Source of the DNA: Candidatus Wolfebacteria bacterium GW2011_GWB1_47_1
GTDB lineage: Bacteria; Patescibacteriota; Minisyncoccia; UBA6257; UBA9933
Length of the DNA stretch: 64,000 nt
Assembly: GCA_001029635.1 (NCBI GenBank)
Contig: CP011209.1
Coordinates: 811,969 to 875,968, forward strand
Direction: 5' to 3'
Shown here: positions 11,513 through 32,591 of the stretch, piece by piece
Position numbering within the stretch: position 1 is the stretch's first letter
Layout: every line of letters starts with the position of its first letter
The notes under the pieces: generated by a model
The model's input: the letters and a program-made list of their open reading frames with translations, nothing else
Databases searched by the model: none
What the model was told of the DNA's origin: nothing
Position numbers and translations under genes: made by a program

Positions 11513-11514
11513 GG

Positions 11515-15883: not shown

Positions 15884-15949
15884 ATATTGGCTATAATATA
15901 CGAGAATTGTGGGGAAATCAAAAGGTTATTTTTATCCTCCCCATATCTC

Positions 15950-16155
15950 ACTCCCCGCAGATGCGGGATTTATCTTCTCCCTACTTTTTTAGTAGAAGTA
16001 GGGCAAAAAGCGCGAGCAAACTAAAAATAGGACTAGGCTCAAAAATCTCTGACAAAATTAAAAATCACCCGTTTAGCAACAGGACCCAGATTTTTAATTT
16101 TTATGGAGATTTTCTTCGCCCACTTAACCCTATTTTTTACAGCTCGCAAATGGAA
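15950..16155. repeat. MITE-like repeat, family A, copy 3. Short variant: X-start hairpin plus Y-module.
   Basis: cgcagatgcggg...ctacttttttagtagaagtaggg followed by gcgcgagcaaactaaaaatag...cccgttt...gacccagatttttaatttt...ttttcttcgccca...ttttttacagctcgcaaat. Confidence 0.6.
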
Positions 16156-16192
16156 TACAAAAAGAGGCGCGATGCGCCTCTTTCGCATTTTC

Positions 16193-17512
16193 TCACTCTT
16201 CACTGAATGACATTTCTTGTGGCGGAATGAGCGTCGGATCAGTCGGTATTGTGATATGAAACACACTTCCCCGATTCAGCTGCGACTCTGCCCAGATGTC
16301 TCCCCCGTGGCGCCGCACAATGTTTTTTGTGATATACAAGCCCAACCCAGTTCCATCGGCAACGGTCTTTTGTGCGTTATCCGCGCGGAAGAACTTCGTG
16401 AATAACCGCTGCATTTCCTCTGCCGGAATCCCGATTCCCGTATCCCTTATACTCATTTCCACATATGGTTTTTCTACCTGCTGTTCGATCTCGACAGTCA
16501 CCTCTCCGTTTTCGATATTATATTTAATCGCGTTCGATACCAGATTCGACAGCACAATACCAAGCTTTTGTGGATCTATGGATACGGGAATCGGGTTTGC
16601 CGATTTTTTCAAATACAATTTAATTCCCATTTCCTGCGCATACGGCATAATCTCACTTAATACCTGTTCCGCAAACACATTAATATCCATATCCTGGAAT
16701 TTGTACCCATAGCGGCCCTCCTCAATCTGCGACACATCGAGTAGGTCATTCACTGTCTTTAATATATTGCTCGCGGCCATAACCCCCATATCAACCATCT
16801 CCTTCTGACTCTCCGGCATCGTTTCCTTTGCTAGTGACTCGAATATCCAATTAATGGAAGTCAGCGGAGTGCGCAATTGGTGCGCTGCAACTTCGATAAA
16901 TTCGCTCTTTGACTTGAGCATCGACACCTCTCTGGTTCGGTTATGAATAATTTTCACAAATCCCAGTAGTACGCCATTGGGGTCGACGATCCGGTCTGTC
17001 GTAATTCGTAACTCCGTCGTTGGGTTTGTGAACGACATATCAACCACCTGCGGGTATGCGCCCCCCTCGGAACGGCGCACGACTGATGGCGCTATCGACG
17101 GGTACAATATCTGTGTTAGTACGGTAAATTTCGCATCCTTCGCGTACTCAGGAGTCATCATCTTACCAATCACATCCGCAGCCACAACGCCCGTCACTTG
17201 CTCGGCTGCCTTGTTTATCATCACAATCCGAAAATTCTGATCGTACGCGATCAATCCATCAAGCAGATTTGCCATAATACTCCCTAGCTCATTGCGCTCT
17301 ATCTTGATCTCTCCGTTGAGCCGCGCAATGCGGACACCATTCAGCAAGATAATAGACCCCATTACGATAAAGATACCTGCACTGATTACAATCCAGATCG
17401 GCTCCAAATAAAACGAGTTAATACCCAATACTACGATTGCAAGCGGCAAAAAATACCAGAAAGGACGCATTTCCGGCATTTTTAAATATGATGTTTTCAT
17501 TCCGCTTACCAT
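16193..17512 (-). CDS. Sensor histidine kinase (two TM, PAS-like, HisKA, HATPase_c)
   Basis: H-box AAHQLRTPLTSI, N-box LSNLVSNAIKY and G-box GTGLGLYITKNIV. Its start overlaps the stop of the upstream gene (ATGA). Confidence 0.85.
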   Translation of the reverse strand: MVSGMKTSYLKMPEMRPFWYFLPLAIVVLGINSFYLEPIWIVISAGIFIVMGSIILLNGVRIARLNGEIKIERNELGSIMANLLDGLIAYDQNFRIVMINKAAEQVTGVVAADVIGKMMTPEYAKDAKFTVLTQILYPSIAPSVVRRSEGGAYPQVVDMSFTNPTTELRITTDRIVDPNGVLLGFVKIIHNRTREVSMLKSKSEFIEVAAHQLRTPLTSINWIFESLAKETMPESQKEMVDMGVMAASNILKTVNDLLDVSQIEEGRYGYKFQDMDINVFAEQVLSEIMPYAQEMGIKLYLKKSANPIPVSIDPQKLGIVLSNLVSNAIKYNIENGEVTVEIEQQVEKPYVEMSIRDTGIGIPAEEMQRLFTKFFRADNAQKTVADGTGLGLYITKNIVRRHGGDIWAESQLNRGSVFHITIPTDPTLIPPQEMSFSEE

Positions 17513-18621
17513 TATTGCAATTGCAGACTGTAGAGTTTTCTATCGTATCGGTTTATAAACAGTATCTTGTCGTCCAATACGGTCAAATCGGTCGCATCGA
17601 TCTTTGGTTCTTCGTCCTCAAATATCGCACGAATGCCATTCGTTGTCAGATCGATCTGATATATTCCATCCTGGAAATATACGCTTCGCTTCAGATATTC
17701 ATCCGGAAGAACCATATGCGTCAATGCTTCCTGATCACGGGGAATAGCACAATACATTTGCGTCGATGTCGCCATAACACACTTATCGGGCAGGGTAATA
17801 AACCGCAAGGACATTGATTCCACTCCCTTATCGTCGATAACCGCCAATTTATGCCCCCTCCCTTCAGTGGTCGTGAACTTCAATGCCCGGTCTCCTAACG
17901 GAGACCACTGTACCATGAGACCACGTCCTGATAAAAACTTTGAGAGCTTCTTCGTCCCCAAATCAATCTTCCATAGGTCAGATACATATTCGGCCGATGG
18001 GGGTTGTGTTAAATAGAGCGATTCTTTTTGTGGCCATTGCAAGTCAAATCCTTTCACGTTTAAACTTATGATCTTCTGAGGAGCTGCTTGTTCATTTTTT
18101 ATATCTTGAACCATAATCTGCGGTACGATAGTTCCTGAGTCATTCCCCGCTATTATCATTGCTATTTTCCCATCCCCCCCCCATGCAACATTATCAACGC
18201 CAATAAAATCCCTAATACGATCAATACTTATTCCGTCATATATTACACCATCCCCATCTTGACCTAATTTCGAAAAAATCCATCTACCTGAAGATGATAC
18301 CTCAATATCAACCCCTTGCAGTCCACTTTCGCTAGTTATCTCTGTTCCGTTGCTTTCTATTTCCACAACTGATCCATTTTCTGCAATATATATAATCTTT
18401 GAAGATGTAGCTACTTCCTGCACCCAATATGTCTTCACTTGTCGAGAACTCATCATTAGCAACTTCTCCACTTTAGGTTCTATCGGAGTAATCCCCCCTC
18501 CTATTATCTCCGGAATTACTTCTATTATCTGCTTCCTATTTTGCCATGCGAAATACGCACCAACACCAAGTGCAACAACCCCTAAAATAATTCCAATTGT
18601 GATAAGCCACTTTTTATTCAT
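17512..18621 (-). CDS. Hypothetical membrane-anchored secreted protein with a beta-rich (propeller-like) domain
   Basis: 369 aa with an N-terminal TM. Translationally coupled to the histidine kinase. It is the last gene of the T4SS-like cluster. Confidence 0.55.
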   Translation of the reverse strand: MNKKWLITIGIILGVVALGVGAYFAWQNRKQIIEVIPEIIGGGITPIEPKVEKLLMMSSRQVKTYWVQEVATSSKIIYIAENGSVVEIESNGTEITSESGLQGVDIEVSSSGRWIFSKLGQDGDGVIYDGISIDRIRDFIGVDNVAWGGDGKIAMIIAGNDSGTIVPQIMVQDIKNEQAAPQKIISLNVKGFDLQWPQKESLYLTQPPSAEYVSDLWKIDLGTKKLSKFLSGRGLMVQWSPLGDRALKFTTTEGRGHKLAVIDDKGVESMSLRFITLPDKCVMATSTQMYCAIPRDQEALTHMVLPDEYLKRSVYFQDGIYQIDLTTNGIRAIFEDEEPKIDATDLTVLDDKILFINRYDRKLYSLQLQ

Positions 18622-18635
18622 TGCTCTTAGCCATA

Positions 18636-19643
18636 TTATAATCGTACATGCAGGTGCCCCCCGGTCGTCGTCGTAAATGATTGCGGATTGCTCCCCACTG
18701 AATACTCATTCACCACATTTAACCCCGCCGCTCGCGCAGCATTTATAAAAGCGTTCACTCTCGCTGCGGTTATACTCCCCATCAATCCAATATCGACACA
18801 TGTTCCATTAAAATGGCAACTCGACATATGATCCACCGTTGGTGGATACCCTTCAGTCATGCGCCATTGCAACCCAGCAGCTGTTGCTTTTGTCTGTAGC
18901 ACATTCAGGGCCGCTATCAAATTTCTATTAGTCTGGCACCCTGCCCCAAAACAGGCTCCTTGCTTTACAATAAACGTCCCTCCTCCTCCGAAACTAGGCG
19001 AAGCGCAATCTACGCATGACTGAAGTTTTGCCGCCAACTCGGGCTTCGCTCCTCCGTATAAATTCACCGCGCCTTGTATTGTCTGTGCCGCTGTTATCGC
19101 TGTCGACGTCGCACCTTCATCGGTCATCGATATACCTATCTCCGTAAACTGCCTTGGCGTTATCTTTTCCTTCGGTTGCAATGCACTTTGGATGCGTGAG
19201 ATGTTGATAATATTCGGGTTGATCGTATTAAAGATTACCTGAGCCCCAAACAATAGCACAATCCCTTTGAGCGCATTTTTTATATACTCATTGCTTTGTT
19301 TTATTTTACCAATATCGGCGGAAACAGTACGCAACACTCCTCCGTAGATAATCACCCCTACTGCCACAATCCCCACCAGCCCCATGAGGTACTTGTAGAT
19401 CAAAAAAACAAGGTCTGCAGGACCCATTGCCCCCTGTACGATCGGGGGTAGATACCTTGGCGTATATAATTCACCTCCGGTCTGCCCCGGGTTTGCGGCT
19501 GCTGTCGATTGCGCATTCACCAACTCCGGAACAAACAATACGCCGACACATACTAACGCAAAACAAATAACTACTTCTATTACTGCAGCCTGTGATCGAC
19601 GTACCATATGATTCATTATATCGAAAAATGTCTTGATTGTCAT
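18636..19643 (-). CDS. T4SS-associated fusion protein. N-terminal VirB2/TrbC-like pilin-type double-TM domain, C-terminal M15-type (LAS) zinc peptidase.
   Basis: N-terminal half: two hydrophobic helices (VICFALVCVGVLFV, LMGLVGIVAVGVIIYGG). C-terminal half: SCHFNGTCVDI (SxHxxGxAxD) and GGHLHV (HxH) motifs. Confidence 0.5.
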   Translation of the reverse strand: MTIKTFFDIMNHMVRRSQAAVIEVVICFALVCVGVLFVPELVNAQSTAAANPGQTGGELYTPRYLPPIVQGAMGPADLVFLIYKYLMGLVGIVAVGVIIYGGVLRTVSADIGKIKQSNEYIKNALKGIVLLFGAQVIFNTINPNIINISRIQSALQPKEKITPRQFTEIGISMTDEGATSTAITAAQTIQGAVNLYGGAKPELAAKLQSCVDCASPSFGGGGTFIVKQGACFGAGCQTNRNLIAALNVLQTKATAAGLQWRMTEGYPPTVDHMSSCHFNGTCVDIGLMGSITAARVNAFINAARAAGLNVVNEYSVGSNPQSFTTTTGGHLHVRL

Positions 19644-19666
19644 GCACTTATTGTGACCTTCCTCAT

Positions 19667-20374
19667 TTACGGCATCTCCACAAAAACCTTGTTTCTGACG
19701 TTTTCAATCGCCTTACGCTGATTAATGATGATCGCTTCTATCGTCGATCTCGATCCAGGCGGAATGTCGCTCCCTACAGTGAATAGCAATGCTGCCTCAT
19801 CCGCCTTCTTCGTATCAAGTGCCTTCCCGTCGATAGTCCACTGGAGATTCAGTGTGCGCACATCCGTCGTATTAAAAAAGAATGGCCATGCATACATTGC
19901 GTTCTCGCCCCGCTCGATGCCCTTTTTAAAATAGGGCACATCAATGACCACTTCCGGCTTTCGTATCGGAATATCGAATGTCTTTTCATACAGCTTCCCG
20001 TTGTAGCTGGGGATCGTTATCTTTATCGATGAGACTCCTCCGCCATACTTCTTATTCACGATAATAACCCTCTTTATTCCCAATCCATTTAGCTCGTTCT
20101 TTACCAGCTTACCGTCCACATACCATCTAACCCCGGTTTGAGACAAATCCGCTATCTTCCCATCTTCGATAAGTTCAAAAGTGATTGTTATCGCGCTTTC
20201 ATGCGTCGGGAATGCGCGACCTTCATACCACGCAGGTACATACGTACGCGTCTGCCAGTTTGTCATGAACTCGGTTTCCGCATGCGCATGCGCAACTCCA
20301 CCCAATAGCACCACCATAGCTCCAACGACACCATACCAATATTTTTTTATATTCCGACGGGTTTTTTTCATCAT
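19667..20374 (-). CDS. Hypothetical secreted protein
   Basis: 235 aa with a signal peptide (MVVLLGGVAHAHA). Confidence 0.5.
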   Translation of the reverse strand: MMKKTRRNIKKYWYGVVGAMVVLLGGVAHAHAETEFMTNWQTRTYVPAWYEGRAFPTHESAITITFELIEDGKIADLSQTGVRWYVDGKLVKNELNGLGIKRVIIVNKKYGGGVSSIKITIPSYNGKLYEKTFDIPIRKPEVVIDVPYFKKGIERGENAMYAWPFFFNTTDVRTLNLQWTIDGKALDTKKADEAALLFTVGSDIPPGSRSTIEAIIINQRKAIENVRNKVFVEMP

Positions 20375-20397
20375 GCTTTTATAGTTAGATGCATTTC

Positions 20398-21012
20398 TTA
20401 TTCTCCCATTGCTATTTTACGACGTAGCTCTGCTGCTCGAATCTCATTCGACTCTCTTCTTTCGGCCATACGATCACCCACTCCACTTACCCTGCGCTGC
20501 GTAGGCATCTCCATACGCTGTCCAACCGCCGATGCATTTACCGTTACCACTTCCCTTCTTGCCGTTTCTGCGGTCGTTGCCGCTGTCTGAGCGCTTGCCG
20601 CAACGGTCGCGTTTCGCGCCGTAGCAGTTACAGCCCCTTTTCCTCTAGTTGCAATGATCTGCCCTGCAGGTCCCACGATCTTCTCGATCTTTTCTGAATT
20701 GTTGATCATCCAAATTCCGATCATTGTTGATATGGTCTTAATGGGCAATATCGTCCCCAGTATGCCATCTAAAACCCCCCCCAATGGTTGCACAATCAAT
20801 CGCTTGATCCCGACACCTCCGCGGAATATCATGTACATTTCCAATAGCGCAACCATTCCAATATTCATTATCTCAACCACCCCTATACCAGCTCCGAGCG
20901 TAACCAACAAAATAGCGACCTCAACAAGTTCTTCGATTCCTACAAGGAGTACGAGGAATATTGTTTCTGCCAGCCCGACTGTTTTTGTCTTTATTTCTTC
21001 GTCCATAGTCAT
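20398..21012 (-). CDS. Hypothetical multi-TM membrane protein, in the position of VirB3 or another T4SS inner-membrane component
   Basis: 204 aa with three hydrophobic helices. Directly downstream of VirB4. Confidence 0.45.
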   Translation of the reverse strand: MTMDEEIKTKTVGLAETIFLVLLVGIEELVEVAILLVTLGAGIGVVEIMNIGMVALLEMYMIFRGGVGIKRLIVQPLGGVLDGILGTILPIKTISTMIGIWMINNSEKIEKIVGPAGQIIATRGKGAVTATARNATVAASAQTAATTAETARREVVTVNASAVGQRMEMPTQRRVSGVGDRMAERRESNEIRAAELRRKIAMGE

Positions 21013-21027
21013 CGTTCGCTCCAGTCA

Positions 21028-22800
21028 TTACAATTTTCCTTCTTCCGCTATTTCCAATAGTTGCTCCGGATTTGTCGTTATGATCCGGTCCTCGAAATAG
21101 GACGGGATGATCTTGATCGCCACGTGCTTCATCCCCACAAGGAAAATCCCCTCTCCCACTCCCGCCGACAACACAAGACTCTTTTCCGCTTCACTGAGCG
21201 AAAAAGTCTTTGCAAGTGTTTCAATGCTCGATGGAGCCTGCTTCAATAGCAGCTGCAGCGACGAGTTCGATACAATCGGTACACCAAACGGCGAGTTCAT
21301 AAAGTCATCCACGTTCTGCGTAATCGTGGTCATTCCCAAGTAATATTTACGACATCGTTTTGCGAGTGCAAACAAGAACGACGCACTGTCTGCGTGCTTC
21401 ATCAAGACCCAAGCCTCATCGATGATCAGGATGCGCTTTTTCATCTCTGCGCGGATCAAATTCCAAATATAGCTCAGCATCATGTACATTGCGATTGGCC
21501 GTAACTCCTCTTCAAGATCGCGTGTCGAAAAGATCACCAACCGATTGTTGACATCCACATTCGTTGCCCGATTGGCAAACCCCGCATAAGTACCTTGGGT
21601 AAATTTGTACAGCTTCGCCGCCATACTCTTCCCTCCTTCCATGTTTTCCAAGACTGTCTGCAAATCGCTCAGTAATGGCGCTTCCAATGTCGAGAAATCC
21701 TTAATGTCACTCGTGATACCGCGCGATGCGTATGTTTCATTGATTGCTCGATCCAGCAGCGCATCTTCTTCCGGTGTGATCGCCCCCATCATCAGCTTGA
21801 GTAGGCCAACGATGTTCAAAATATGCGACTTGTACACATCGGCAGGGTCTTCTCCTTGCGGTACGACAGGGATATCCAACGGATTGATTGCCGTATCGGA
21901 TGTCAGCGATATCTTCAACAAGCTTCCTCCAACCGCATCGGCCAACTTTTGGTACTCGTTTTCCGGATCGATGACGATGACGTCAATGCCCATCATTAAC
22001 GAACGCAAAATTTCCAATTTTGTACCATACGATTTACCGGCACCGGATTTTGCGAATACCACCTGGTTCGCGTTTTCCAATGAGAATCGGTCAAAAATAA
22101 TCAACGAATTGTTATGCTGATTAATACCGTACAATACACCCTTATCTGACGTGAGGTCTTCCGATACGAATGGAAAAAATGACGAGATCGGACTCGTATT
22201 CAATGCAGTGTGGATCTGCAATTTGTCCTGCGCAATTGGTAATGTCGAAATAAATCCTTCAATATGTTGAAAGATCGACGGCTTCACATACACCATCTGA
22301 CTATCCAGCATTGACGTGATACGATCTTCCGCCCGCGCAAGCTCATCGACAGAATTCGCGTAGATCGTTATATATACCCCCACATCAAATAACTTCTCTT
22401 CCGCCTGCTGCAATTGATCGCGCAGGGCTTCGATATCCTGATATGCCGTTTCCAATGCCGGGTCTCGGACCAATCCTTTTTCATCACGCTCCGAAAGCTG
22501 CGCCTCTACCTGAGTCACTTTTCTTCGCAACTTCGATAGCGCCGCCGATGTATCGATCGGATGCACAAAAATGGAAATGTCTAGAAGATTTGGCAAATTA
22601 ATGATCACGTCAAACCACCCGGTCGACAGATATCGCGGATAGGTGAACACGAAAATCGTCTTTGCGTACGTATCTCCGAGTCTTATGTAATTAGGATTTG
22701 CTTCAAGCGCAGCAGGAGCGATGACATTCTTTACGTCGTCCCCCTCCTCATATGCCTGCGGTACGGTTATTTTTTCCATTTTTGTAGTTAGTGTTGTCAT
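21028..22800 (-). CDS. virB4: VirB4/TrbE/CagE-family type IV secretion ATPase, catalytic portion
   Basis: Walker A FAKSGAGKSYGT and Walker B LIIDEAW. 590-614 aa depending on start. Listed ORF reaches 22872 via GTG; the more plausible start is ATG 22798-22800 (MTTLTTK). A REP-like insertion lies at 22791-22875. Confidence 0.8.
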   Translation of the reverse strand: MTTLTTKMEKITVPQAYEEGDDVKNVIAPAALEANPNYIRLGDTYAKTIFVFTYPRYLSTGWFDVIINLPNLLDISIFVHPIDTSAALSKLRRKVTQVEAQLSERDEKGLVRDPALETAYQDIEALRDQLQQAEEKLFDVGVYITIYANSVDELARAEDRITSMLDSQMVYVKPSIFQHIEGFISTLPIAQDKLQIHTALNTSPISSFFPFVSEDLTSDKGVLYGINQHNNSLIIFDRFSLENANQVVFAKSGAGKSYGTKLEILRSLMMGIDVIVIDPENEYQKLADAVGGSLLKISLTSDTAINPLDIPVVPQGEDPADVYKSHILNIVGLLKLMMGAITPEEDALLDRAINETYASRGITSDIKDFSTLEAPLLSDLQTVLENMEGGKSMAAKLYKFTQGTYAGFANRATNVDVNNRLVIFSTRDLEEELRPIAMYMMLSYIWNLIRAEMKKRILIIDEAWVLMKHADSASFLFALAKRCRKYYLGMTTITQNVDDFMNSPFGVPIVSNSSLQLLLKQAPSSIETLAKTFSLSEAEKSLVLSAGVGEGIFLVGMKHVAIKIIPSYFEDRIITTNPEQLLEIAEEGKL

Positions 22801-22830
22801 TCCGTGCTTGACACGGAATCTTATTATTAG
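22791..22830. repeat. REP-like element, family R, at the VirB4 split site
   Basis: gtcattccgtgcttgacacggaatc hairpin, then caggatgacac at 22860-22870. Confidence 0.5.
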
Positions 22831-22875
22831 CCTTCCGATACGAGATTCTGAAACAAGTTCAGGATGACACACTTA

Positions 22876-23526
22876 TTATTTCTGTTTCGCGATTCCTATT
22901 CCCTTCTTCTCGGTTGCCGCAGGATTATATAAATTATAAAATAGTTCGATCAGCTCGGCATCATTTAATGTGACTGCGCGCAATCCGATTCCTGAAAGTC
23001 CCGTCGCAACGTGGTCGGCGCGCTGATTCAACTGTTCTATCTGTTCATTTAATGTCTTTTCGTCCTCCGTTTTCGTATCCTTTTTCTTTCCAAAAAATGG
23101 AATGCCGCTCATTATTCCTCCCGATGTCGGTAATCCAGCAGTGTCGTACGAAACCACAACAAAGAACGACTTGCCCATGATGTCGCTTTGTTCGACGAAT
23201 GACTTGATGAATTCGCCATATTCGGCGATCTGCTCTCGAAGCAATTCATTTTCCTCGTGTTCCTTGCGTTGTTCCAGCCCCTCCAAGTAGCCCTGAATAT
23301 TGAGTCTTCTCGAATGGACAATAATCTGCAGCGAAAAATCGAGTGAGTTTAAAAAGCTCTGGTATGCCTGTAAAATAATATTTTTATCCTCTTCGGATTT
23401 TAACGCAAAATTGATCCCACTTACCAGTAAGATCTTGCGCAATGAACCTCCCTTAAGAATCACCGTTCCCCTCTGTACCCGTTCTACATCTACAAATTGT
23501 TGCGTTGCCTGTGCTTCTACTGCCAT
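22876..23526 (-). CDS. VirB4 N-terminal-domain-like protein. It is in the same frame as virB4 and separated from it only by tandem TAA TAA.
   Basis: 216 aa, soluble. It ends AKQK with stop codon 22876-22878; the next codon 22873-22875 is also TAA; GTG at 22870-22872 is the listed virB4 ORF start. Confidence 0.5.
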   Translation of the reverse strand: MAVEAQATQQFVDVERVQRGTVILKGGSLRKILLVSGINFALKSEEDKNIILQAYQSFLNSLDFSLQIIVHSRRLNIQGYLEGLEQRKEHEENELLREQIAEYGEFIKSFVEQSDIMGKSFFVVVSYDTAGLPTSGGIMSGIPFFGKKKDTKTEDEKTLNEQIEQLNQRADHVATGLSGIGLRAVTLNDAELIELFYNLYNPAATEKKGIGIAKQK

Positions 23527-23624
23527 ATATCACGTATTATACACTAAGATTTGCCCTTTTGCATTCTCCCCATCCTTCTTTCTATCGATTAATTTTGCAA
23601 TTGATCAATCGTCCAATCAACTCT

Positions 23625-24175
23625 CTACCTAAAATCCACCCGTTTCGCCACCTCCTGCTCACCTGTCTGCCTTCTAAATATGCTCAGCTTTTCCGCAACT
23701 GCCGCAGGGATTGCCTTCTCGCGTTGCGGGATTGGATTCTTTCTTGTCGTAAGATCCGATGACAGCTTATTAATCGATGGCATTTGGGCAGTAAATTGCT
23801 TCAGCGTGTTTCTTTGGTCGATAATCTTTTCTTCAGGAACCGGTGCTGTTGTCGGTTTAATGTTTGCAAATTCCGGCACTTCAATCACGCGCTCCTTTAT
23901 TTCCCGCTTCCATAGATATAACCTTGGCTTCCAGAAGAATCCTACAGCCGCAAATGCAATGCGTGTCAGGGGCTGTCCGTTAACCTTTACCAGCGCCAAT
24001 GCAAGCGCCCCTCCGAGCGATATAAGCGCAACTATCGCACCTGCCAAAAAAGGCATCGTTGTAAACGCTAAAAATGCCACTACTCCTCCTCCAACCACGT
24101 ACAGCAACTGTCGTAACGAAAAAGGACCGGCGATTTTGTCTTCTATTTCAATAAATTGAGGTATTTGGAATTGCA
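23625..24175 (-). CDS. T4SS-associated small membrane protein (two TM)
   Basis: Start taken as MQFQIPQFIEIEDKIAGPFSLRQLLYVVGG. The longer listed ORF 23625-24350 begins inside REP copies. Confidence 0.45.
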
Positions 24176-24227
24176 TGGGTAGCTCGATAGCAAATAGCTT
24201 ATTAGCTCGTTGGTGGCATGTGGATAT

Positions 24228-24300
24228 TTTGTCATTCCGGCGGAGGCCGGAATTTATTTTGATCTGGACCCCGGCCTCCGCCGGGGTGACAATTTGGTCC
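24228..24300. repeat. REP-like elements, family R, tandem inverted pair
   Basis: tgtcattccggcggaggccggaat ... ccccggcctccgccggggtgacaa. Confidence 0.6.
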
Positions 24301-24306
24301 GATTTA

Positions 24307-25464
24307 TTACTTCTTATCCTGTACCCGCTCCAGCATCCGCAGGTCGACAATGTCGTCGTTTACCGGAATCTGCGCAAGTTGTGGTTCCTTCGCTGCGGGC
24401 GCTTGCTGAGCAACTACACCAACCCGTTGCGGCGTCTTCATTATCGTAGCTTCAGGAATCTTTGGCATCGATGCCATCGGCTTGCCCTCCTCCGGCATTG
24501 CCGGTACGGGAATGGCAACGGATGAGATCACTTCATTCTGCGCGCCAAGATCAACAACCCTTGGCTCAAAGTCTACCACATGCTCCTGCTTTGTCGTAGG
24601 GACGAATATCGGCTCTATACCCTTTTGTTGTGCCTGCTCTTGCTGGCCAAACATATCCTGAGGAGCCTTTGCACTCGTATAATGGACCACTTTCACCTCC
24701 TGTTGCGGTGTTTTTGCCACCTCCTCCGACTTCTTCCCCAACCCCTCAATCATACTTATCTGAGCCGTTACGGCAGGGCCTGCGGATTTTTGCTCCTGAT
24801 TACGCTTAAATCCAAATACTCCTCCAAATGAACTCAGCGGTCTTCTCTTTTGTGTCACCGGCACAAGATCAGCTTCGGCATGTATAATTGTCGGGGCCGG
24901 CATACCGACTCCATCTTCCGCTGCCCCCGTTGGGACACTTACATTCCTACCCATATCCCCTTCGATTCGCACCTTTCTTATTTCCACAGATGCTTCCTGC
25001 TCTTCCGTTACTATCGCAGGATTTATACGATCAGTCGCGATCATTGCAGGGGTTTGCGCAGTCGCCTCCCCGCTCGTTTGCGCTGCATTCTGCTCTCGTG
25101 CGGGCCCCTCCTCCGCCATAATAGCCGGACTTTCTCCTGATACATCCGCGCGTAACTTCAAAATTAACCCTTTAACCGGATCGAATATCCGTTTATCAAT
25201 TTGAAAAATGATCGGGTCGATCGCCTTTTGATCCATCCCCGGGATGGATTGCAATTCCTTTGCTAAGTCGTTGATATGAGTAAATCCAAGCAGTATGTTA
25301 CCCATAACTATCAATACCACATCAATAATTTCTTCCGACAATCCAGCGTCCTCGCATGCCTTCCATATAATTTCCCCATTATCCACAGAGAAAAAGGCCT
25401 CCTTAAGCTCGTCAGGCACCTGTCCCCATCGGTCATAGATTTGTTCGTTGGTCACTGTTTGCAT
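24307..25464 (-). CDS. Hypothetical protein with a low-complexity C-terminal half
   Basis: 385 aa. Lies between the VirB6-like gene and the small membrane protein. Confidence 0.45.
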   Translation of the reverse strand: MQTVTNEQIYDRWGQVPDELKEAFFSVDNGEIIWKACEDAGLSEEIIDVVLIVMGNILLGFTHINDLAKELQSIPGMDQKAIDPIIFQIDKRIFDPVKGLILKLRADVSGESPAIMAEEGPAREQNAAQTSGEATAQTPAMIATDRINPAIVTEEQEASVEIRKVRIEGDMGRNVSVPTGAAEDGVGMPAPTIIHAEADLVPVTQKRRPLSSFGGVFGFKRNQEQKSAGPAVTAQISMIEGLGKKSEEVAKTPQQEVKVVHYTSAKAPQDMFGQQEQAQQKGIEPIFVPTTKQEHVVDFEPRVVDLGAQNEVISSVAIPVPAMPEEGKPMASMPKIPEATIMKTPQRVGVVAQQAPAAKEPQLAQIPVNDDIVDLRMLERVQDKK

Positions 25465-25479
25465 TGCCGTTACTTTTGG

Positions 25480-27771
25480 TTATGCTTTTTTCTCTTCTTC
25501 CTTACTTGCCGTATACAAACGACTTGCCCCCGACTTTCTCATTGAATCCTGCATGCGCACTATATGTTGATAATCCTCAGACTCCTTCTTCATCGATGAG
25601 AAGTCCGCACTGTCCCGTGCATGCAACATCTTCATCTGCGCTTCGATATCATTTAGTACGCGTTCTCCTCCGAGATTCTTATATGCCTTTGCATCATGTT
25701 CTTCGATCCATGTCAGCATTTCCTTAATATCTTTTGTTTTCGCTATATCCTCATTTGTTGCCTTAAGCTCTTTCATAACCGAAACCAATTCTTTATTGGT
25801 TGCTCCGGCGATCTCAGCACCCTTCGTCGCCTTGATTCCGTCGATCACTCCCTGCTTTATTTCGGCACCAATCCCTTCTATCTTACCCATGAATTTTTTC
25901 ACCTCCGGACCCTTACCAATACCTTTCGTAAGAGAAGCGAGGGCACGTGGATCGTTCATCATTAATGACTGTAGCGCTTCCTTACCGTATTTGCCTTTAT
26001 CATAGAAATCAAATCCCAGAGCAACGCGATCCTTTTCGGCAAATGAATCAAAGAACTTCTTCGCCTCCTCCTGATACTTCTTCTTTGCACTTACAATAGC
26101 ATCTGTCTTGGCCACGCCTGGTGGCAATGCATTTGCTGCGTCAACGCCCTTTTGTGCGGTCAGCATCTCGGCATTCCTTCCTGCTGCCTTAGTTAGCTTT
26201 GCATATGCTCCTGCGCCACCAATGCCATCGAACTGCCCCTTAATGCCAGTCGCACCCGTGCTCATAATATCCGCATCAAGGATCTTTTCGTTGATCTTCC
26301 CTAGGTTGCCACCCTTAGCGAGCTGCTGTTGCGCAAAGAACTTCTCGTCGGTAGCCATGGTCGCATAGCGGCCGGCCAAGCTGTCGTCGGACATTCCCTT
26401 GAACTTCTCGTCGAATGCCTTCTTAAGCGCTGCCTGCTGCGATTGCGATATCGCCTGCCCTGCGCGTCCCAAAGCACCAGCAGTCCTCCCTTTGGCCCAA
26501 CCCATAACACCCGGCTTACGCTCCGCCTCCATCTTGCGTAGATCGGCCGCACTTACGCCATACTTCTTGGCAACATAGCCTGCCCCAGCAATGCCTGCTG
26601 CCGCGCCCCGCGCACCCATGCGGCGCGCTCCGCGTTCAGTCTCTCTGCGCACATATGCCTGCGTGCCCTTGCCCATCTTTTCGAGCCTCGCCTTACTCCA
26701 GCCAGACATATTACTGATCATGTCCTTGCTTCCTTTTGCTCCCTTCAAGCTGATGCTATTTGCCGCGATCAACGACATCATCATGAACATGATCGCCATG
26801 GCGGCCTGCACAACGGAACTCATCGTAAACAGAAGGCCATCTCCAAACGCATACGTTGCGTTGCCACCGCTACCGGCAGCTGTCGGAGCGGGATTATCGA
26901 ATGCATTTAGCGATGTTAGTGACAGCCACATGAAAAATATCATGACCGGTGGGAACATCGTCCATCGCACAAAGTCATTCCACCATTTGTCCCAATGACT
27001 ACGCGTTGACGGAAATATCCTGGAAACGAATACGATCGGTGTAAGCACCAGCAAAAATGTCAACGTAAAATACCGGATGAATAACATCGCCGCGATCGTC
27101 ATCATAATGACCGATGCGATAAGCGTGAAGATGATAATGAACACCATACTTCCGATAATGCTCAATATCCCTGATCCGAATTTGTCCATTGCTCCCGCAA
27201 TGCTTGTAGCTCCGCTTTTTGTACTCAAAAATCCTGAAATATCAAACCCACTCGCGAGCGCAGACGTTATATTCCCTCCCGACAATCCAGACTGCTGTAC
27301 AAAAAACTCGGTCACCATTCCTGAAAAATCAATCAGCACTCCAGGAATCACCAAACTGAAGTTCACAAGAAGTGAAATGACGATCAGAGGCACTAATGCC
27401 TTCTTCATGCCGTATGACTCAAAATTCAGCATCGTCGCAAATGCGATGACGATCAACGCTATTACGAGCGCCAGATCTGCTACGTTTACGAATACCGTCC
27501 ACCCCTTAAAGAGAAATACGTTCTTTGCCGGATCCAATATTGTATTATTCAGATTCATGCCCAGTTCGATGAACGAACCTCCAAGCATAAAGAACTTCTG
27601 GGCAACCCAAGTAAAAATTACTAAAATAGCCTGACTCGCCTTGGTGATTACGGACGTCCCTAAAGAATCAATATATCCCGCCACCTGTGCGTATGTAAAC
27701 TGCGTAAGCGCGATTTCAAAAATCGCGCTTACAAGTCCGATTAAAAGAATTTTTTTATAGATCGATTTCAT
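25480..27771 (-). CDS. VirB6/TrbL-like polytopic membrane protein with a long hydrophilic C-terminal tail
   Basis: 763 aa. At least 6 TM helices in the N-terminal 350 aa, then a charged Ala/Lys/Gly-rich tail, typical of TrbL/VirB6-type components. Confidence 0.6.
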   Translation of the reverse strand: MKSIYKKILLIGLVSAIFEIALTQFTYAQVAGYIDSLGTSVITKASQAILVIFTWVAQKFFMLGGSFIELGMNLNNTILDPAKNVFLFKGWTVFVNVADLALVIALIVIAFATMLNFESYGMKKALVPLIVISLLVNFSLVIPGVLIDFSGMVTEFFVQQSGLSGGNITSALASGFDISGFLSTKSGATSIAGAMDKFGSGILSIIGSMVFIIIFTLIASVIMMTIAAMLFIRYFTLTFLLVLTPIVFVSRIFPSTRSHWDKWWNDFVRWTMFPPVMIFFMWLSLTSLNAFDNPAPTAAGSGGNATYAFGDGLLFTMSSVVQAAMAIMFMMMSLIAANSISLKGAKGSKDMISNMSGWSKARLEKMGKGTQAYVRRETERGARRMGARGAAAGIAGAGYVAKKYGVSAADLRKMEAERKPGVMGWAKGRTAGALGRAGQAISQSQQAALKKAFDEKFKGMSDDSLAGRYATMATDEKFFAQQQLAKGGNLGKINEKILDADIMSTGATGIKGQFDGIGGAGAYAKLTKAAGRNAEMLTAQKGVDAANALPPGVAKTDAIVSAKKKYQEEAKKFFDSFAEKDRVALGFDFYDKGKYGKEALQSLMMNDPRALASLTKGIGKGPEVKKFMGKIEGIGAEIKQGVIDGIKATKGAEIAGATNKELVSVMKELKATNEDIAKTKDIKEMLTWIEEHDAKAYKNLGGERVLNDIEAQMKMLHARDSADFSSMKKESEDYQHIVRMQDSMRKSGASRLYTASKEEEKKA

Positions 27772-27816
27772 GTGGCGATAGCACCAATTCCAGTCTCACT
27801 TTTTCTTCCTAGACTC

Positions 27817-29334
27817 CTATGGAGTTGCAGGCGTCCCAGCTCCCTGCACAGTCCTGCATGTTTGCAGTCGTGTTAAAACAAGATCCAGCTCTCCTTTCCA
27901 TGCAACAGACTGATCCTTCGCATCTTGCAGTTGTTGTGGGTATGCTGTGGTTGGATCAGTAATCAAGGCGCCGCGCGCGTACTTGTCCATGAAGTCCTTC
28001 ACGGCATTTGTTGCCAGAATAGCCTCTCTCGTATTAAGCATATTCGCCCCTTCAACCCTGCTAATAGCCCCCTGCGCCTCATCGAGTTTCGCCTGCAGGT
28101 CCGCCAGTTCCGTTGTAAGTAATCCGCCGCGCGCCGTCACTTCTGCAATCTCATTTTCCGTAACTTGTGGCGGACATAGCACACCCGCCTCCTGGATCCC
28201 TTTGATCGCGCTGAGGTTTGCCGTTATTTGCTCGCTATAAGTTACCGATAAGCGCTTTTGCGCAACCAATGCACTCCACTGATCTTTAAACGGCTTTACT
28301 TGATCCGTCAGATCCTTCTTGTCGTCATTCGTAAGTGCGTCGATCTCCGGAGCGAGTTGCGTTGATGGATTAAACCCATTCTGAGGGTTCTCATTTCCCG
28401 TCATCAGTGCTAGTCCTTCGCTCATCATGCGATTGATTCCCGCATTGATCGCAGCCGAAATAATGCTCTGTACTCCCGATACATAGATATTGTCAGATCC
28501 GATCATATTTTTCACCGCCCCCGCGACAGCGTCTCCTGGTGTCTGGACCTGTTCCTTCGTACATGTCGCTGCCTCCGTGGCATAGTCGTAACAATAGTTT
28601 GGATCGCCCGTATCAAAATAATTATTTGCGACACAGTAATCGTACATTTCCTGCGAGTTGTCCTCGATACACTTACTCACCGACAAGAATCCACTACCTG
28701 CACCCGCTTCCTGCTTCTTTTTCTCTGCGCTCACGGTCGATCGCGTCTTCATGTCGTCATCAAACATAACCAACTGCATGTAGAGATTGTTCTCCGGCTT
28801 TATCGAGGCGCCATACGCAAGCCATCCTCCATTTTCAAAATTTTCATAAAAATCCTCCACATTCGCCACGATATCCGAAATGGTACAGCTTGCCTGTTGG
28901 CTTACCGGCTGCTCTTCCGGGATCATTGCGATCTTCAGCTGTAATGCGAATGGCGTACACAGGTTCGCGAGCTGCGTCTGGCTTATCGTTTGGTTGACTC
29001 CTTCCATTGCGGCATCCTTCAGGAGCCCTCCCCAATCGCTAACAAATTTCGGCTTTCCGTTCCCTTGGATCCACGCAACCGTCTGCTTGTTGATCTCGTT
29101 AACGATTGCCTTTACAACCTGATCGCGCAACGTATTCCATAATTCGGTCTTCGCCCACTGCGCAACTTGCGTCACCCAATTCATACTGTTCGCAGCCGAG
29201 CCAATCGCCGTCAATGCGTTAAGCGGTCCATCAATGACTGGAATCGCGTATGACTTCTGTGGCGTCGCTAATCCAACCATAAGCACAGCAACGCACATCA
29301 TCGAAACGATAATTTTTTTCACTGTAGTATGCAT
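27817..29334 (-). CDS. Secreted T4SS-associated protein, possibly a VirB5/TrbJ-like minor pilin or adhesin
   Basis: 505 aa with a signal peptide (MCVAVLMVGLATPQKSYA) and coiled-coil-prone segments. Confidence 0.45.
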   Translation of the reverse strand: MHTTVKKIIVSMMCVAVLMVGLATPQKSYAIPVIDGPLNALTAIGSAANSMNWVTQVAQWAKTELWNTLRDQVVKAIVNEINKQTVAWIQGNGKPKFVSDWGGLLKDAAMEGVNQTISQTQLANLCTPFALQLKIAMIPEEQPVSQQASCTISDIVANVEDFYENFENGGWLAYGASIKPENNLYMQLVMFDDDMKTRSTVSAEKKKQEAGAGSGFLSVSKCIEDNSQEMYDYCVANNYFDTGDPNYCYDYATEAATCTKEQVQTPGDAVAGAVKNMIGSDNIYVSGVQSIISAAINAGINRMMSEGLALMTGNENPQNGFNPSTQLAPEIDALTNDDKKDLTDQVKPFKDQWSALVAQKRLSVTYSEQITANLSAIKGIQEAGVLCPPQVTENEIAEVTARGGLLTTELADLQAKLDEAQGAISRVEGANMLNTREAILATNAVKDFMDKYARGALITDPTTAYPQQLQDAKDQSVAWKGELDLVLTRLQTCRTVQGAGTPATP

Positions 29335-29338
29335 GAAA

Positions 29339-30160
29339 TTATAATCCTACTTCAGTATACATTTTTTGCAGCAACTTTTGTAGTAGCGATGAATTTTGAC
29401 CAAACTCAGACAAGGACTGAGCAACCGAATATCCTTTCAATGGATCGGCCGCGCATCCCGCTATCCCGGAAAAAATAACGCTTCCTTGTAAATAATGCGT
29501 GATCCCTTGCTTGTGAAACACCACCCATTGCGATGGCGTTTGTATCTTCATCATATCCCTTGCGATTGCAGTATAGTCATCAGACAATTCTTTGCTGATA
29601 TTCGTCTGTTGACCCGCGCAGGATTGCTCTATCAATCCCTCCAATCCTCCGGGGATATTTTTATATGATTCCTTTACCGGATGGCGCGCCAGCATCGCTT
29701 CAAGGTCCTTCAAATACCGCCGCTTCGCATCCCGCGTGTTGTTCATAATCGTCTTTAAATCGGAATTCTTTACCACGATTCCTTCAAATACCGCATTGGT
29801 CGATTCAGCAACTGACCGCTCGACTGCATTGCGCACCTCTGCCGTATCACTGTTCTTTTCATCAAACGGACTCTTCCCTTGCTGATCAAGTGTCTTCATT
29901 TGTTCGAACGTTGCGCGCGCGATCACCTTTGTCATGTTTGCGCCATCATCCCCTTTACCCTCGCTCAACAAATCCGCACCCATCAGCCCCGCTCCCAATC
30001 CCTCCAGTTCAGTCAATGCGGATGTTCCGTCGAGCGTTGCATTGCCTCTACCCTCCAGCTTGTCCACTTGACCGGCCTCATTTCTACTTGCGACTCCATA
30101 TGCGGCAAAAAGTACCGCCGCAAGTCCTATAAACATAATTGCTATTCCTTTTTTCTCCAT
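29339..30160 (-). CDS. Secreted or membrane-anchored hypothetical protein. First gene of the cluster.
   Basis: 273 aa with an N-terminal signal/anchor (IAIMFIGLAAVLFAAYGVAS). Confidence 0.45.
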   Translation of the reverse strand: MEKKGIAIMFIGLAAVLFAAYGVASRNEAGQVDKLEGRGNATLDGTSALTELEGLGAGLMGADLLSEGKGDDGANMTKVIARATFEQMKTLDQQGKSPFDEKNSDTAEVRNAVERSVAESTNAVFEGIVVKNSDLKTIMNNTRDAKRRYLKDLEAMLARHPVKESYKNIPGGLEGLIEQSCAGQQTNISKELSDDYTAIARDMMKIQTPSQWVVFHKQGITHYLQGSVIFSGIAGCAADPLKGYSVAQSLSEFGQNSSLLQKLLQKMYTEVGL

Positions 30161-30215
30161 ACTATTTTTATAGTATAGCCGTAAACATAATTAACGGCAA
30201 ACGTTTTTCATTGCG

Positions 30216-31757
30216 TTATTGAGCCAATACCATTCCGTAATAGAATGCCATGTTCCTCGCAAAATATTCGTTCATCAATGGACTCATAAGTCGCTCCACA
30301 GGCGCATATGTATCCGTCAGAATAATGGTATCTTCATCCGTCATGGACCGATCAATACTTCGCTTTGCGAGAAATGCCCCATTTTCCCCTCGCAGTATCT
30401 TTGTTCGCAGTTCCTGCACACCAATGGGTATTTTCGTATTCACCCCCACTAGTACGATATTCTGCGCATCATATGCATCCGCACCAAAGGCAAAAACGTA
30501 ATAGTTTTCAAATACCAACCCGAATGTCTTTTCCATACTTTTAAAAAACTCTTCCCCCGCTCCTTTTCGTACCGAACTGAAGTTTACCGCAAATACTCCC
30601 CCTTCGTTTAGACGTGCTTTTGCTTCCTCAAAAAATTCTTTCGTCGCCATATGCCATGGTACTGAAATGAACGAATTATACGCATCAGAAAAAATGAGAT
30701 CATACCGTCTGTCCGTCTGACGCAAAAAATTTCTCCCGTCTCCCACTCTTTGCCGTACCGGATAGTCATTTAATTGAAAATACTCATCGGCGACCCGCTG
30801 TACCTTCGGATCAATCTCAACGGTCGTCACGTCAGCTCCTTTATAAAAATCGGCTAATTTTTTTGATAAGTCATACGACCCCCCGCCTATCACCAACATA
30901 TCCTGCATTCTCTCATGTATCGCGCCGAAGATCGGATATATTTCCGGATATGTCCCCAGATGCTGCCCCTCAACCCCCTCAACACTATGGGAATCCGTGT
31001 CGAGCAACAACATTCTTACCCTACCTCTATCTCCCAACTCTCTATCAATAATCCTGATCTTATAATATTCACTCTCCGCGGCAAACACGACCCCTCGTAC
31101 ATCCGCAAACAAATACATCGCGTAGGTCATCATCCCCACTATTGAGAACAGTAAACCGATCAATCCTATCGTCGTTTTTTTGATCCGAGCCAATACCATT
31201 GCATTGGTCAATACAAGCAGAGCCATCAGCAGTATCGTCGTCACGCTGCCGATATATCCGATAAAATAGAACCCCGTTAAAAATGTCCCCGCAATACTTC
31301 CCAACGACCATGCCGCCGATATCTGGCCTGATCGAATTCCTGTCGCATCGATGGTTTGCAAATGCAACTTCAGTATCCCCGGATAGAGCGTCCCGAAGAA
31401 CACTGCCGGAATAAAAAACAAAAGGAACGCCAACAAGATCGTTGTCATTGACATCGACAACCCCGAAAGTGCAACAATGGGGGAAAAATATGAGAACAGC
31501 GGTATAAAAAACGTTGCAACTGATGCCGCAATAAACAGCATTGCCAATGACCGATGAGACTTCTTTCGATCGATATACACTCCTCCTGCATAGTTCCCTA
31601 CCGCCATACCAAGTAGAATCACGCCAATAACCGACGTCCACGTATAGATGGACGATCCTACATATGGCGCCATCAGACGGGTAGCAATCAATTCGATCGT
31701 CATCAGCGCGAAACCCGCTATAAACGCCGATACAATCAATATATTTAACTTCTTCAT
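30216..31757 (-). CDS. speE: Polyamine aminopropyltransferase (spermidine synthase domain) fused to an N-terminal polytopic membrane domain
   Basis: C-terminal MLVIGGGSYDL...VTTVEIDPKV...DLIFSDAYN...GGVFAVNF are SpeE/class I methyltransferase-fold motifs. The N-terminal roughly 220 aa carries more than 6 TM helices. Confidence 0.7.
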   Translation of the reverse strand: MKKLNILIVSAFIAGFALMTIELIATRLMAPYVGSSIYTWTSVIGVILLGMAVGNYAGGVYIDRKKSHRSLAMLFIAASVATFFIPLFSYFSPIVALSGLSMSMTTILLAFLLFFIPAVFFGTLYPGILKLHLQTIDATGIRSGQISAAWSLGSIAGTFLTGFYFIGYIGSVTTILLMALLVLTNAMVLARIKKTTIGLIGLLFSIVGMMTYAMYLFADVRGVVFAAESEYYKIRIIDRELGDRGRVRMLLLDTDSHSVEGVEGQHLGTYPEIYPIFGAIHERMQDMLVIGGGSYDLSKKLADFYKGADVTTVEIDPKVQRVADEYFQLNDYPVRQRVGDGRNFLRQTDRRYDLIFSDAYNSFISVPWHMATKEFFEEAKARLNEGGVFAVNFSSVRKGAGEEFFKSMEKTFGLVFENYYVFAFGADAYDAQNIVLVGVNTKIPIGVQELRTKILRGENGAFLAKRSIDRSMTDEDTIILTDTYAPVERLMSPLMNEYFARNMAFYYGMVLAQ

Positions 31758-32551: not shown

Positions 32552-32591
32552 ATCAGGACAGTATACAGGTAATCAGTAATATGCGACAAGG

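Follow-up and report, generated by a model that had tools for sequence, protein, structure and literature searches.

The window analysed here is a 64,000-nucleotide stretch of the genome of Candidatus Wolfebacteria bacterium GW2011_GWB1_47_1 (contig CP011209.1, positions 811,969 to 875,968), and the system of concern is a gene cluster resembling a type IV secretion system (T4SS). The window is coded almost wholly on its minus strand, and 11 consecutive minus-strand open reading frames (ORFs) of the ORF listing, designated g1 to g11 from the high-coordinate end, occupy positions 17512–30160, or 12,649 bp. An 11-gene, T4SS-like cluster on one strand had been proposed at these positions in a first-pass annotation, and both the ORF listing and checks of the individual components confirm it. 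Neighboring genes of the cluster are separated by only 4–130 nt once two gene starts have been corrected (Table 1). The most likely start of g5 is M59, because the mechanically called TTG start at 24350 runs into g4, while g7 most likely begins at M32, since hundreds of its homologues are about 580 aa long.

Orthologues of the cluster genes were counted in a synteny set of 80 loci (L001–L080) from the class Paceibacteria, for which one genome per species was scanned. The sampled lineages include Wolfe-, Jorgensen-, Harrison-, Nomura-, Giovannoni-, Taylor-, Zambryski- and Azambacteria, among others. Counts were obtained by tblastn and by clustering of ORFs, and all of them are lower bounds, as many of the loci are short.

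The most strongly supported member of the translocon core is g7, a VirB4 ATPase. Its product passes the curated cut-off of NCBIfam NF045971, the CD1110 family of VirB4-like conjugal transfer ATPases (E = 8e-116, 388 bits against a cut-off of 325, positions 179–733 of 752), and also matches the Pfam families P-loop_TraG (E = 8.5e-24) and AAA_10. The catalytic motifs, a Walker A of the form G-x-G-K-S at residues 246–250 and a Walker B of D-E-A-W at residues 454–457, are unchanged in 19 aligned sequences. Homologues of g7 number more than 8000, the top ones being Wolfebacteria proteins of about 580 aa with 67–97% identity, and the 120 nearest are all from Patescibacteria, with Wolfebacteria predominant. 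The closest sequences come from metagenome bins of Wolfebacteria and Paceibacteria, and the same contigs turn up in Rifle-type groundwater metagenomes. A VirB4 model from a mycoplasma integrative conjugative element (ICE), Mbov_0397, matches both g7 (E = 6e-90) and the neighboring g6 (E = 6e-12), in each case under its curated cut-off.

The neighboring g6 corresponds to the N-terminal domain of VirB4 carried as a gene of its own. It matches the NCBIfam TrsD/TraD model (E = 1.2e-10, 41.5 bits against a cut-off of 200) and aligns only with the N-terminal parts of VirB4/TraC models, namely VirB4_plasma (E = 6.4e-12, positions 104–233) and the CD1110 model (positions 2–105), together with positions 30–175 of Pfam TraC_F_IV (E = 4.8e-5). 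A separate gene of about 215 aa lies beside virB4 in 76 of the 80 loci. In one locus, L079 (JAKJEF010000004.1, approximately 9400–11700), the two are fused into a single TrsD-VirB4 protein of 769 aa, and it is for this reason that g6 can be regarded as a detached VirB4 N-domain.

Two further genes complete the recognizable core. The small protein g5 passes the Pfam cut-off for PrgI, PF12666 (E = 6.5e-9, 36.6 bits against 27), and has two transmembrane (TM) segments within residues 85–121 of the mechanical ORF; its orthologues are some 135–180 aa in length. The large protein g3 has about five TM segments followed by a hydrophilic C-terminal extension of roughly 400 aa, and matches Pfam TrbL over nearly the whole profile (3–212 of 215) at E = 1.6e-3, with 18.7 bits against a gathering score of 25.9. 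At the level of the family, TrbL was matched by 4 of 25 g3 orthologues (best E = 1.1e-6), the orthologues of two Wolfebacteria relatives (L085 and L086) bear a precomputed PF19590 TrbL_3 annotation, and the sole match of the g3 family profile in the PDB was TrwI, the VirB6 of R388, at E = 0.097. The VirB4 ATPase, the VirB4 N-domain-like ORF and the small two-TM protein that had been named in the first-pass annotation all hold up, the last of them gaining a PrgI family match as well, and the VirB6/TrbL likeness of the 763-aa protein is backed at the level of its family. Support from profile hidden Markov models (HMMs) extends beyond VirB4 to PrgI/VirB3, TrsD, VirB6/TrbL and the PF18895 pilin described next.

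In g10, a pilin-like hairpin is joined to a cell-wall enzyme fold. The N-terminal half of the protein consists of a signal or TM segment and a two-helix hairpin, and it matches PF18895, "T4SS pilin", at E = 4.8e-4 (20.6 bits against a cut-off of 26.6), as well as the pilin-like mycoplasma ICE model Mbov_0395 at E = 4.4e-5, under its curated cut-off. An AlphaFold2 model built with 25 homologues places the helical hairpin at residues 75–141 and gives the C-terminal domain (about 200–335) predicted local distance difference test (pLDDT) scores above 90. For the C-terminal domain of approximately 135 residues, no match to Pfam Peptidase_M15 or VanY was obtained at E ≤ 0.1, and phmmer found no relevant sequence in the PDB; because of the latter, the structure model was needed for its assignment. 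Structure prediction and a fold search together indicate a LAS fold of the hedgehog/DD-peptidase, M15-like kind. Residues H277-x6-D284 are invariant in 25 sequences, and the C-terminal GGHLHV, containing H-x-H, is kept in full-length homologues; the two motifs together are presumably the zinc-ligand signature of the LAS/M15 family. The earlier proposal of a pilin-like/M15 peptidase fusion is accordingly borne out at the level of fold and motif. The g10 product is probably a membrane-tethered or pilus-borne cell-wall hydrolase.

Comparison of g10 with its relatives suggests a wider pattern. A hypothetical protein of Candidatus Wolfebacteria bacterium GW2011_GWE1_48_7 has the same sequence (100% identity), and many homologues bear a precomputed PF18895 annotation. 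In fact, PF18895 was matched by 29 of 32 positional orthologues, that is, proteins lying between g9 and g11 in the loci of the set, with a best E value of 6e-11. The complete pilin-LAS architecture occurs only in a subgroup of Wolfebacteria, and other relatives have the hairpin alone in common. Individual members of the pilin slot carry C-terminal enzyme domains of other kinds, including VanY (E = 4.4e-11), YkuD (6e-12), NlpC/P60 (4.7e-7) and CHAP. From these domain assignments, the VirB2-like hairpin looks like a platform for interchangeable peptidoglycan-remodelling domains across Paceibacteria. This modular combination of pilin and cell-wall enzyme, the most interesting detail of the locus, was not found stated in the literature, as far as the available excerpts of the relevant papers go.

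The last slot of the cluster is held by g11, which has an N-terminal TM segment (residues 6–24) and is beta-rich. A family profile built from 25 orthologues matches 12 TolB chains, with E values from 7e-12 to 9e-7, over profile positions of about 164–274; the match spans only part of the propeller. The likeness to TolB seen with this profile concerns the fold; as the Tol-Pal partners are absent, it does not make g11 a member of a Tol-Pal system. Orthologues of g11 always lie downstream of the pilin slot.

Immediately after g11 comes a sensor histidine kinase, with Pfam matches to HATPase_c (E = 1.3e-30) and HisKA (E = 6.8e-12) and a weak one to PAS. The stop codon of g11 and the start codon of the kinase share one nucleotide (TAATG), so that the membrane-anchored, beta-rich protein joined to a sensor histidine kinase in the first-pass annotation is found as described. 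Outside the window, g11 is followed by a kinase in L004 and, with gaps, in the Wolfebacteria relatives L085 and L086; most Paceibacteria loci have none at this position. It is a lineage-specific neighbor that lies outside the class-wide module. The proposal that the kinase is a part of the T4SS itself is only partly supported, as it adjoins the cluster in those three loci alone.

The remaining five proteins of the cluster lack an assigned family, and are conserved to varying degrees by sequence or by position. The first, g1, has a hydrophobic segment at residues 6–24 that could serve as an N-terminal TM or signal anchor; it gave only noise in Pfam and NCBIfam, and a profile of six orthologues had no match in the PDB. 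Orthologues detectable by BLAST occur in only 3–4 of the 80 loci, and most loci hold an ORF of 250–330 aa in that slot. The secreted protein g2 has a cleavable-looking signal peptide, ending ...SYA/IPV, and five invariant cysteines (C126, C150, C222, C258 and C387). Its AlphaFold2 model has a mean pLDDT of 56.5 and is confident only in a C-terminal helical bundle (about residues 330–500), for which Foldseek returned generic helical bundles only; a PDB profile search likewise gave no usable match. Extra F5/8-type-C or PKD domains occur in single orthologues of g2, in line with exposure at the surface, and g2 is possibly a surface or adhesin component.

In g4, a conserved domain of about 100 aa at the N-terminus gives way to a low-complexity tail rich in Q, E, P and A, with no Pfam, NCBIfam or PDB profile match; 13 orthologues are detectable by BLAST, and its slot is filled by a protein of 200–500 aa in nearly all loci. 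No BLAST orthologue of g8 was found in the loci, nor any HMM or PDB match. The position following virB4 is nevertheless taken in most loci by an ORF of 100–230 aa with 2–4 TM segments, and the proteins in this slot share an acidic residue in TM1, a K-G-V motif and the pattern E-x-I-P...L-P-x-x-T, by which g8 can be recognized as a member of a divergent family conserved by position. The secreted g9 has a signal peptide, ...AHA/ETE, and 3 of 26 members of its family show weak matches to BiPBP_C, a beta-sandwich; g9 probably consists of two Ig-like repeats, and a PDB profile search with it found no match. Searches of g1, g2, g3, g4, g8 and g9 against NCBIfam gave nothing meaningful. The descriptions of these proteins as secreted, low-complexity or multi-TM in the first-pass annotation agree with the signal peptides of g2 and g9, the TM or signal anchor of g1, the tail of g4 and the 2–3 TM segments of g8. 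Its further statement that most components have no recognizable family goes too far: five of the 11 (g1, g2, g4, g8 and g9) are unassigned, and the other six have a family or a fold.

The order of the genes is kept far beyond this genome. Across the Paceibacteria loci, the recurring arrangement on one strand is uvrD - ksgA - [g1] - g2 - g3 - [g4] - g5 - g6 - g7 - [g8] - g9 - [g10] - g11, which answers the question of synteny left by the first-pass annotation. Two close Wolfebacteria relatives, with VirB4 identities of 86% and 76%, retain the full order together with the downstream kinase, PBP2 and GalT. Since the same order beside ksgA-uvrD recurs across 80 Paceibacteria genomes, the cluster belongs to the chromosome as a module passed on by vertical descent, and is neither an insertion nor an integrative element.

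Housekeeping genes flank the cluster on the chromosome. Upstream lie a spermidine-synthase-like protein, KsgA, a UvrD-type helicase, ComM and RecG, and downstream lie PBP2, GalT, a VTT-domain protein and the 23S and 5S rRNA genes. The spermidine-synthase-like protein, of 513 aa, combines an N-terminal multi-TM region with a methyltransferase domain. Its gene stands between ksgA and g1, overlaps ksgA by 4 nt and was found elsewhere only in L002 among the 80 loci; it represents an insertion that is specific to the lineage and borders the module.

Functions needed for mobility were sought within and around the cluster. No VirD4/TcpA coupling protein, relaxase, VirB11 or integrase emerged when every sizeable ORF in the window was scanned with Pfam, just as the first-pass annotation had stated, and none of the four was present among the genes called in approximately 10 kb past each end of the window (about 84 kb in total), where the flanks consist of housekeeping genes and no att sites came to light. 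The base composition is even as well: the GC content of the window is 0.41–0.49, the GC skew is evenly negative, and the T4SS cluster is compositionally indistinct.

Two direct repeats of about 200 nt do flank an 18.8 kb segment that holds the cluster, ksgA and uvrD. Additional copies, one of them inverted, bring the number in the window to at least four (Table 1). The copies are approximately 150–250 nt in length with 70–91% mutual identity and have no match in Rfam, and three of them are found a short distance upstream of PBP2, uvrD and 23S rRNA, all encoded on the minus strand. A role of the flanking repeats as att sites is ruled out by the extra copies elsewhere and by the inclusion of the housekeeping genes ksgA and uvrD in the bracketed segment. 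The repeat is a dispersed intergenic element, for which a miniature inverted-repeat transposable element (MITE)-like sequence, a regulatory region or a small RNA are candidates.

Table 1. Features of the cluster and its surroundings, with positions in the window. The last column gives the number of the 80 Paceibacteria loci with a tblastn match or, for ksgA and uvrD, with the gene upstream of the cluster (counts limited by flank length).
Feature	Positions	Strand	Description	Loci (of 80)
g1	29339–30160	-	273 aa, first module slot, no recognizable family	
g2	27817–29334	-	505 aa, secreted, conserved cysteines, mostly alpha-helical	35
g3	25480–27771	-	763 aa, VirB6/TrbL-like polytopic protein of "extended VirB6" type	50
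g4	24307–25464	-	385 aa, low-complexity tail, no family	
g5	23625–24176	-	PrgI/VirB3-like, two TM; most likely start (mechanical ORF 23625–24350)	71
g6	22876–23526	-	TrsD-like, VirB4 N-terminal domain as own gene	76
g7	21028–22779	-	VirB4 ATPase, 583 aa; most likely start (mechanical GTG ORF reaches 22872)	
g8	20398–21012	-	204 aa, small polytopic membrane protein, 2–3 TM	
g9	19667–20374	-	235 aa, secreted, beta-rich	32 (64 by clustering)
g10	18636–19643	-	VirB2-like pilin hairpin and C-terminal LAS/M15-like domain	30
g11	17512–18621	-	369 aa, membrane-anchored TolB-like beta-propeller, last module slot	40
histidine kinase	16193–17512	-	PAS-HisKA-HATPase	
ksgA	31754–32551	-	Pfam RrnaAD, E = 5e-42	35
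uvrD/pcrA-type helicase	32764–34557	-	Pfam UvrD-helicase, E = 7e-83	27
513-aa protein	30216–31757		multi-TM and spermidine-synthase-like methyltransferase domain	
comM	35986–37518		ComM	
recG	41657–43834		RecG	
repeat copy	15940–16192		flanking direct repeat	
repeat copy	34665–34954		flanking direct repeat	
repeat copy	11028–11225		further copy (plus 11287–11329)	
repeat copy	1510–1697		further copy, inverted	
5S rRNA	7413–7528	-		
23S rRNA	7685–10666	-		
GIY-YIG ORF	39464–39718		stand-alone nuclease, 84 aa, E = 4.5e-12	
500-aa ORF	40115–41617	+	no Pfam match	
reverse transcriptase	46926–47918	-	diversity-generating retroelement (46926–49400)	
bAvd-like gene	48008–48313	+	retroelement accessory gene	
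template repeat	48313–48444		retroelement	
variable repeat	48813–48944		retroelement	
194-aa ORF	48816–49400	-	retroelement target, no Pfam match	

Published work places such a cluster in a known context. A survey by Quinonero-Coronel et al. (2025, Microb Genom; PMC12102498) reported VirB4 in 2,417 of 3,035 Patescibacteria genomes, forming a monophyletic clade nested within the FATA class of mating-pair formation (MPF) systems, MPF-FATA, with TrsD, PrgI/VirB3, VirB6 and VirB2-like pilins (PF18895 being among the profiles used) encoded near virB4. The same survey found VirB8 to be rarely detectable outside the class ABY1, VirB1-like hydrolases to be tied to virB4 chiefly in Paceibacteria, and ksgA to be a frequent neighbor of the T4SS. 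Work with Southlakia epibionticum showed that its epibiotic growth requires the T4SS, pilins included (Wang et al. 2023, Cell; PMC10633639). No coupling protein or relaxase was recognizable in the Southlakia cluster, and Wang et al. suggested protein export or another role instead of DNA transfer. Moreover, a 2026 bioRxiv preprint (10.64898/2026.06.21.733656) described tubular structures at the parasite-host interface that are possibly T4SS pili.

The Wolfebacteria locus resembles these Patescibacteria systems closely, with the Southlakia genes SEML1_0006-0019 as an example. Like them, it is chromosomal; it has VirB4 with a separate TrsD-like protein, PrgI/VirB3, a VirB6-like protein and a PF18895/VirB2-like pilin; it lacks a relaxase or coupling protein in the cluster; it has wall hydrolase functions downstream of virB4 and ksgA nearby; and its composition is of the monoderm type, without VirB7, VirB9 or VirB10. 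It differs in having one pilin-like gene, where Saccharimonadia and Microgenomatia have arrays of 2–11, and in the fusion of its pilin hairpin to a LAS/M15-fold domain. The Paceibacteria module also adds the TolB-like propeller, the Ig-like secreted protein, the Cys-rich helical secreted protein and the small polytopic protein, which were not found named in the excerpts of PMC12102498 and PMC10633639. Essentiality has been shown for the Saccharibacteria T4SS only.

Likenesses to mobile and DNA-uptake systems are also apparent. As in the conjugative MPF-FATA systems of pCF10 (Prg/Pcf), pGO1 (Trs) and Clostridioides difficile CTn2, there are TrsD and PrgI homologues, a VirB6-like channel protein and a wall hydrolase analogous to PrgK/TrsG, there is no outer-membrane core, and CD1110 is the best curated match of the VirB4. 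Unlike these systems, the locus has no coupling protein (type IV coupling protein, T4CP; PcfC/TrsK), relaxase, oriT, PrgB-type adhesin or recognizable VirB8-like protein of the PrgL/TraM kind. It does have a VirB2-like pilin, which is absent from the Gram-positive systems, and its place is in the chromosome, where it is passed on vertically, instead of on a mobile element. The mycoplasma ICE proteins Mbov_0395 (matched by g10) and Mbov_0397 (matched by g6 and g7) likewise come from a small-genome organism without an outer membrane, but they belong to a mobile ICE with integration and transfer functions, whereas this locus is without mobility features. With Helicobacter pylori ComB and archaeal Ced, the locus shares a chromosomal position and the lack of both a relaxase and a VirD4-type coupling protein; ComB, however, has a diderm core of ComB7, ComB9 and ComB10, and no CedA-like proteins were detected in the locus.

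Taken as a whole, the cluster probably encodes a chromosomal, inherited T4SS of the Patescibacteria branch, MPF-FATA-like and built from 11 genes, that serves an epibiotic lifestyle and not conjugative self-transfer. The first-pass annotation had likened it to the T4SS-like DNA-uptake or cell-contact systems of Patescibacteria rather than to a self-transmissible element. Its T4SS-like character is supported, and synteny and the lack of mobility genes within about 84 kb speak for its non-self-transmissible one, while the DNA-uptake half of that claim is unsupported. An uptake machine in the style of H. pylori ComB or archaeal Ced, importing environmental or host DNA or nucleotides, is in fact an unlikely explanation of the cluster. 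The lack of a T4CP or relaxase would suit such a machine, as would the presence of ComM, RecG and UvrD within 15 kb and the report that comF, recG and radA neighbor the T4SS in class ABY1 (PMC12102498). ComM, RecG and UvrD are nevertheless ordinary housekeeping genes, of which only uvrD is syntenic with the cluster. The VirB4 does show a weak similarity to CedB (E = 1.2e-11), but at 44 bits against a cut-off of 700 it falls far below the 388 bits obtained with Gram-positive conjugative VirB4, and no CedA-like or ComB-specific component was detected among the cluster proteins. Work with Saccharibacteria also disfavors uptake, as competence there requires ComEC, which is dispensable, while the T4SS is essential (PMC10633639, summarized in the 2025 review PMC12857230).

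The nearest families outside Patescibacteria are all conjugative (the VirB4 of CD1110/CTn2, TrsD of pGO1, PrgI of pCF10, Mbov_0395 and Mbov_0397), and VirD4-like proteins are present in 2,918 Patescibacteria genomes, mostly distant from virB4, according to the survey PMC12102498. The cluster might thus be conceived as a mating-pair-formation module, either from a degraded ICE or from a working conjugation system whose coupling protein and relaxase are encoded elsewhere, with the two repeats around the 18.8 kb segment as its borders. Such an origin is very improbable. The same chromosomal position is kept class-wide, which indicates vertical inheritance, and the ICE version is already refuted by synteny unless excision were shown. 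Furthermore, about 84 kb of evenly composed DNA hold no integrase, relaxase or T4CP, the flanking repeat is a dispersed element whose bracketed segment takes in ksgA and uvrD, and the same survey reported no more than 109 relaxase homologues, spread over 103 of the 3,035 Patescibacteria genomes. That the cluster is a decaying, non-functional remnant is scarcely credible. The occurrence of VirB4 in two ORFs and the five proteins without a family match might suggest decay, but a pseudogene is ruled out as the cause of the split, which is the normal state in 76 of the 80 loci and has its counterpart in the known TrsD family (PMC12102498). The VirB4 is 67–97% identical in many genomes with its catalytic motifs invariant, all 11 slots hold intact ORFs conserved class-wide, and the Saccharibacteria counterpart is essential (PMC10633639).

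Several points weigh against an epibiotic T4SS as the explanation of the cluster, or at least against parts of it. The assignments of g3, g6 and g10 to TrbL, TrsD and PF18895 draw on family-level evidence, their own scores lying below the cut-offs. No VirB8-like component was matched among the cluster proteins in Pfam, NCBIfam or PDB profiles, a fold could not be assigned to five of the 11 proteins, and g2 models poorly over its conserved N-terminal domain (pLDDT below 50). A globular domain of 190 aa may misfit a pilus, and the hairpin of g10 would then perhaps be a membrane anchor only. The VirD4-like proteins common in Patescibacteria count here as well, and a coupling protein may lie elsewhere in the genome, beyond the 84 kb inspected. 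Finally, the function of the machine is inferred.

With these points in mind, a working model of the epibiotic T4SS can be outlined. VirB4, docked at the membrane by PrgI and TrsD, would drive the building of the VirB6 channel and of a short pilus or tube, with the VirB6-like g3 forming the channel and the pilin-like g10 forming or anchoring a short extracellular tube. The peptidase domain of g10 would open the cell's own or the host's peptidoglycan, in the role of VirB1/PrgK, and g1, g2 and g9 would build, together with the TolB-like g11, an extracellular, wall-spanning or host-contacting part. The machine would then export proteins to the host or import host material, and would not conjugate its own DNA. 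In Wolfebacteria, the adjacent histidine kinase may couple expression to a signal.

The locus is a typical example of the published Patescibacteria system, and its kind is already known. The class-wide conservation of 11 slots, the interchangeable enzyme domains of the pilin slot and the TolB-like last slot may be new details. A more specific proposal, to be taken as tentative and rather doubtful, is that the Paceibacteria T4SS is an 11-protein device for host penetration or feeding, whose "pilin" is a modular envelope-cutting subunit with TolB-like, Ig-like and Cys-rich partners and an enzyme domain matched to the wall of the host. If this were true, the enzyme domain would help to set the host range and would open a conduit for host material to cells that are biosynthetically minimal.

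The wider interest of such systems is clear. Much of the diversity of bacteria is found in Patescibacteria, which apparently live off other cells. Theirs was also, in Saccharibacteria, the first T4SS for which an essential role in the growth of its owner was demonstrated. The present locus offers a clean and complete reference for Paceibacteria, with a fixed 11-gene order, a single pilin-peptidase fusion and a TolB-like propeller, and its features are targets for structural and biochemical work on the route by which an ultrasmall monoderm gets through its own wall to a host. The modular pilin-hydrolase fusions, the TolB-like component and the five conserved unknowns would be the leads to follow.

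Some observations concern the remainder of the region. A scan for promoters and terminators at positions 15800–32800 yielded no site that marked an operon boundary; promoter-like sites equaled the shuffled expectation, and the 21 terminator-like sites were a modest excess over the 13.2 expected (sd 3.3). The 23S and 5S rRNA genes are not accompanied by a 16S rRNA gene in the window, and the rRNA genes are therefore unlinked. Strand and GC skew shift briefly at 38–40 kb, around the GIY-YIG ORF, beyond which lies the 500-aa plus-strand ORF.

A diversity-generating retroelement lies further along the window. Its bAvd-like accessory gene is on the strand opposite to the reverse transcriptase and the target, and its variable repeat falls at the 3′ end of the 194-aa target ORF. 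In the minus-strand reading, the template and variable repeats differ at 24 positions, of which 22 are adenines in the template; this is the classic signature of these elements.

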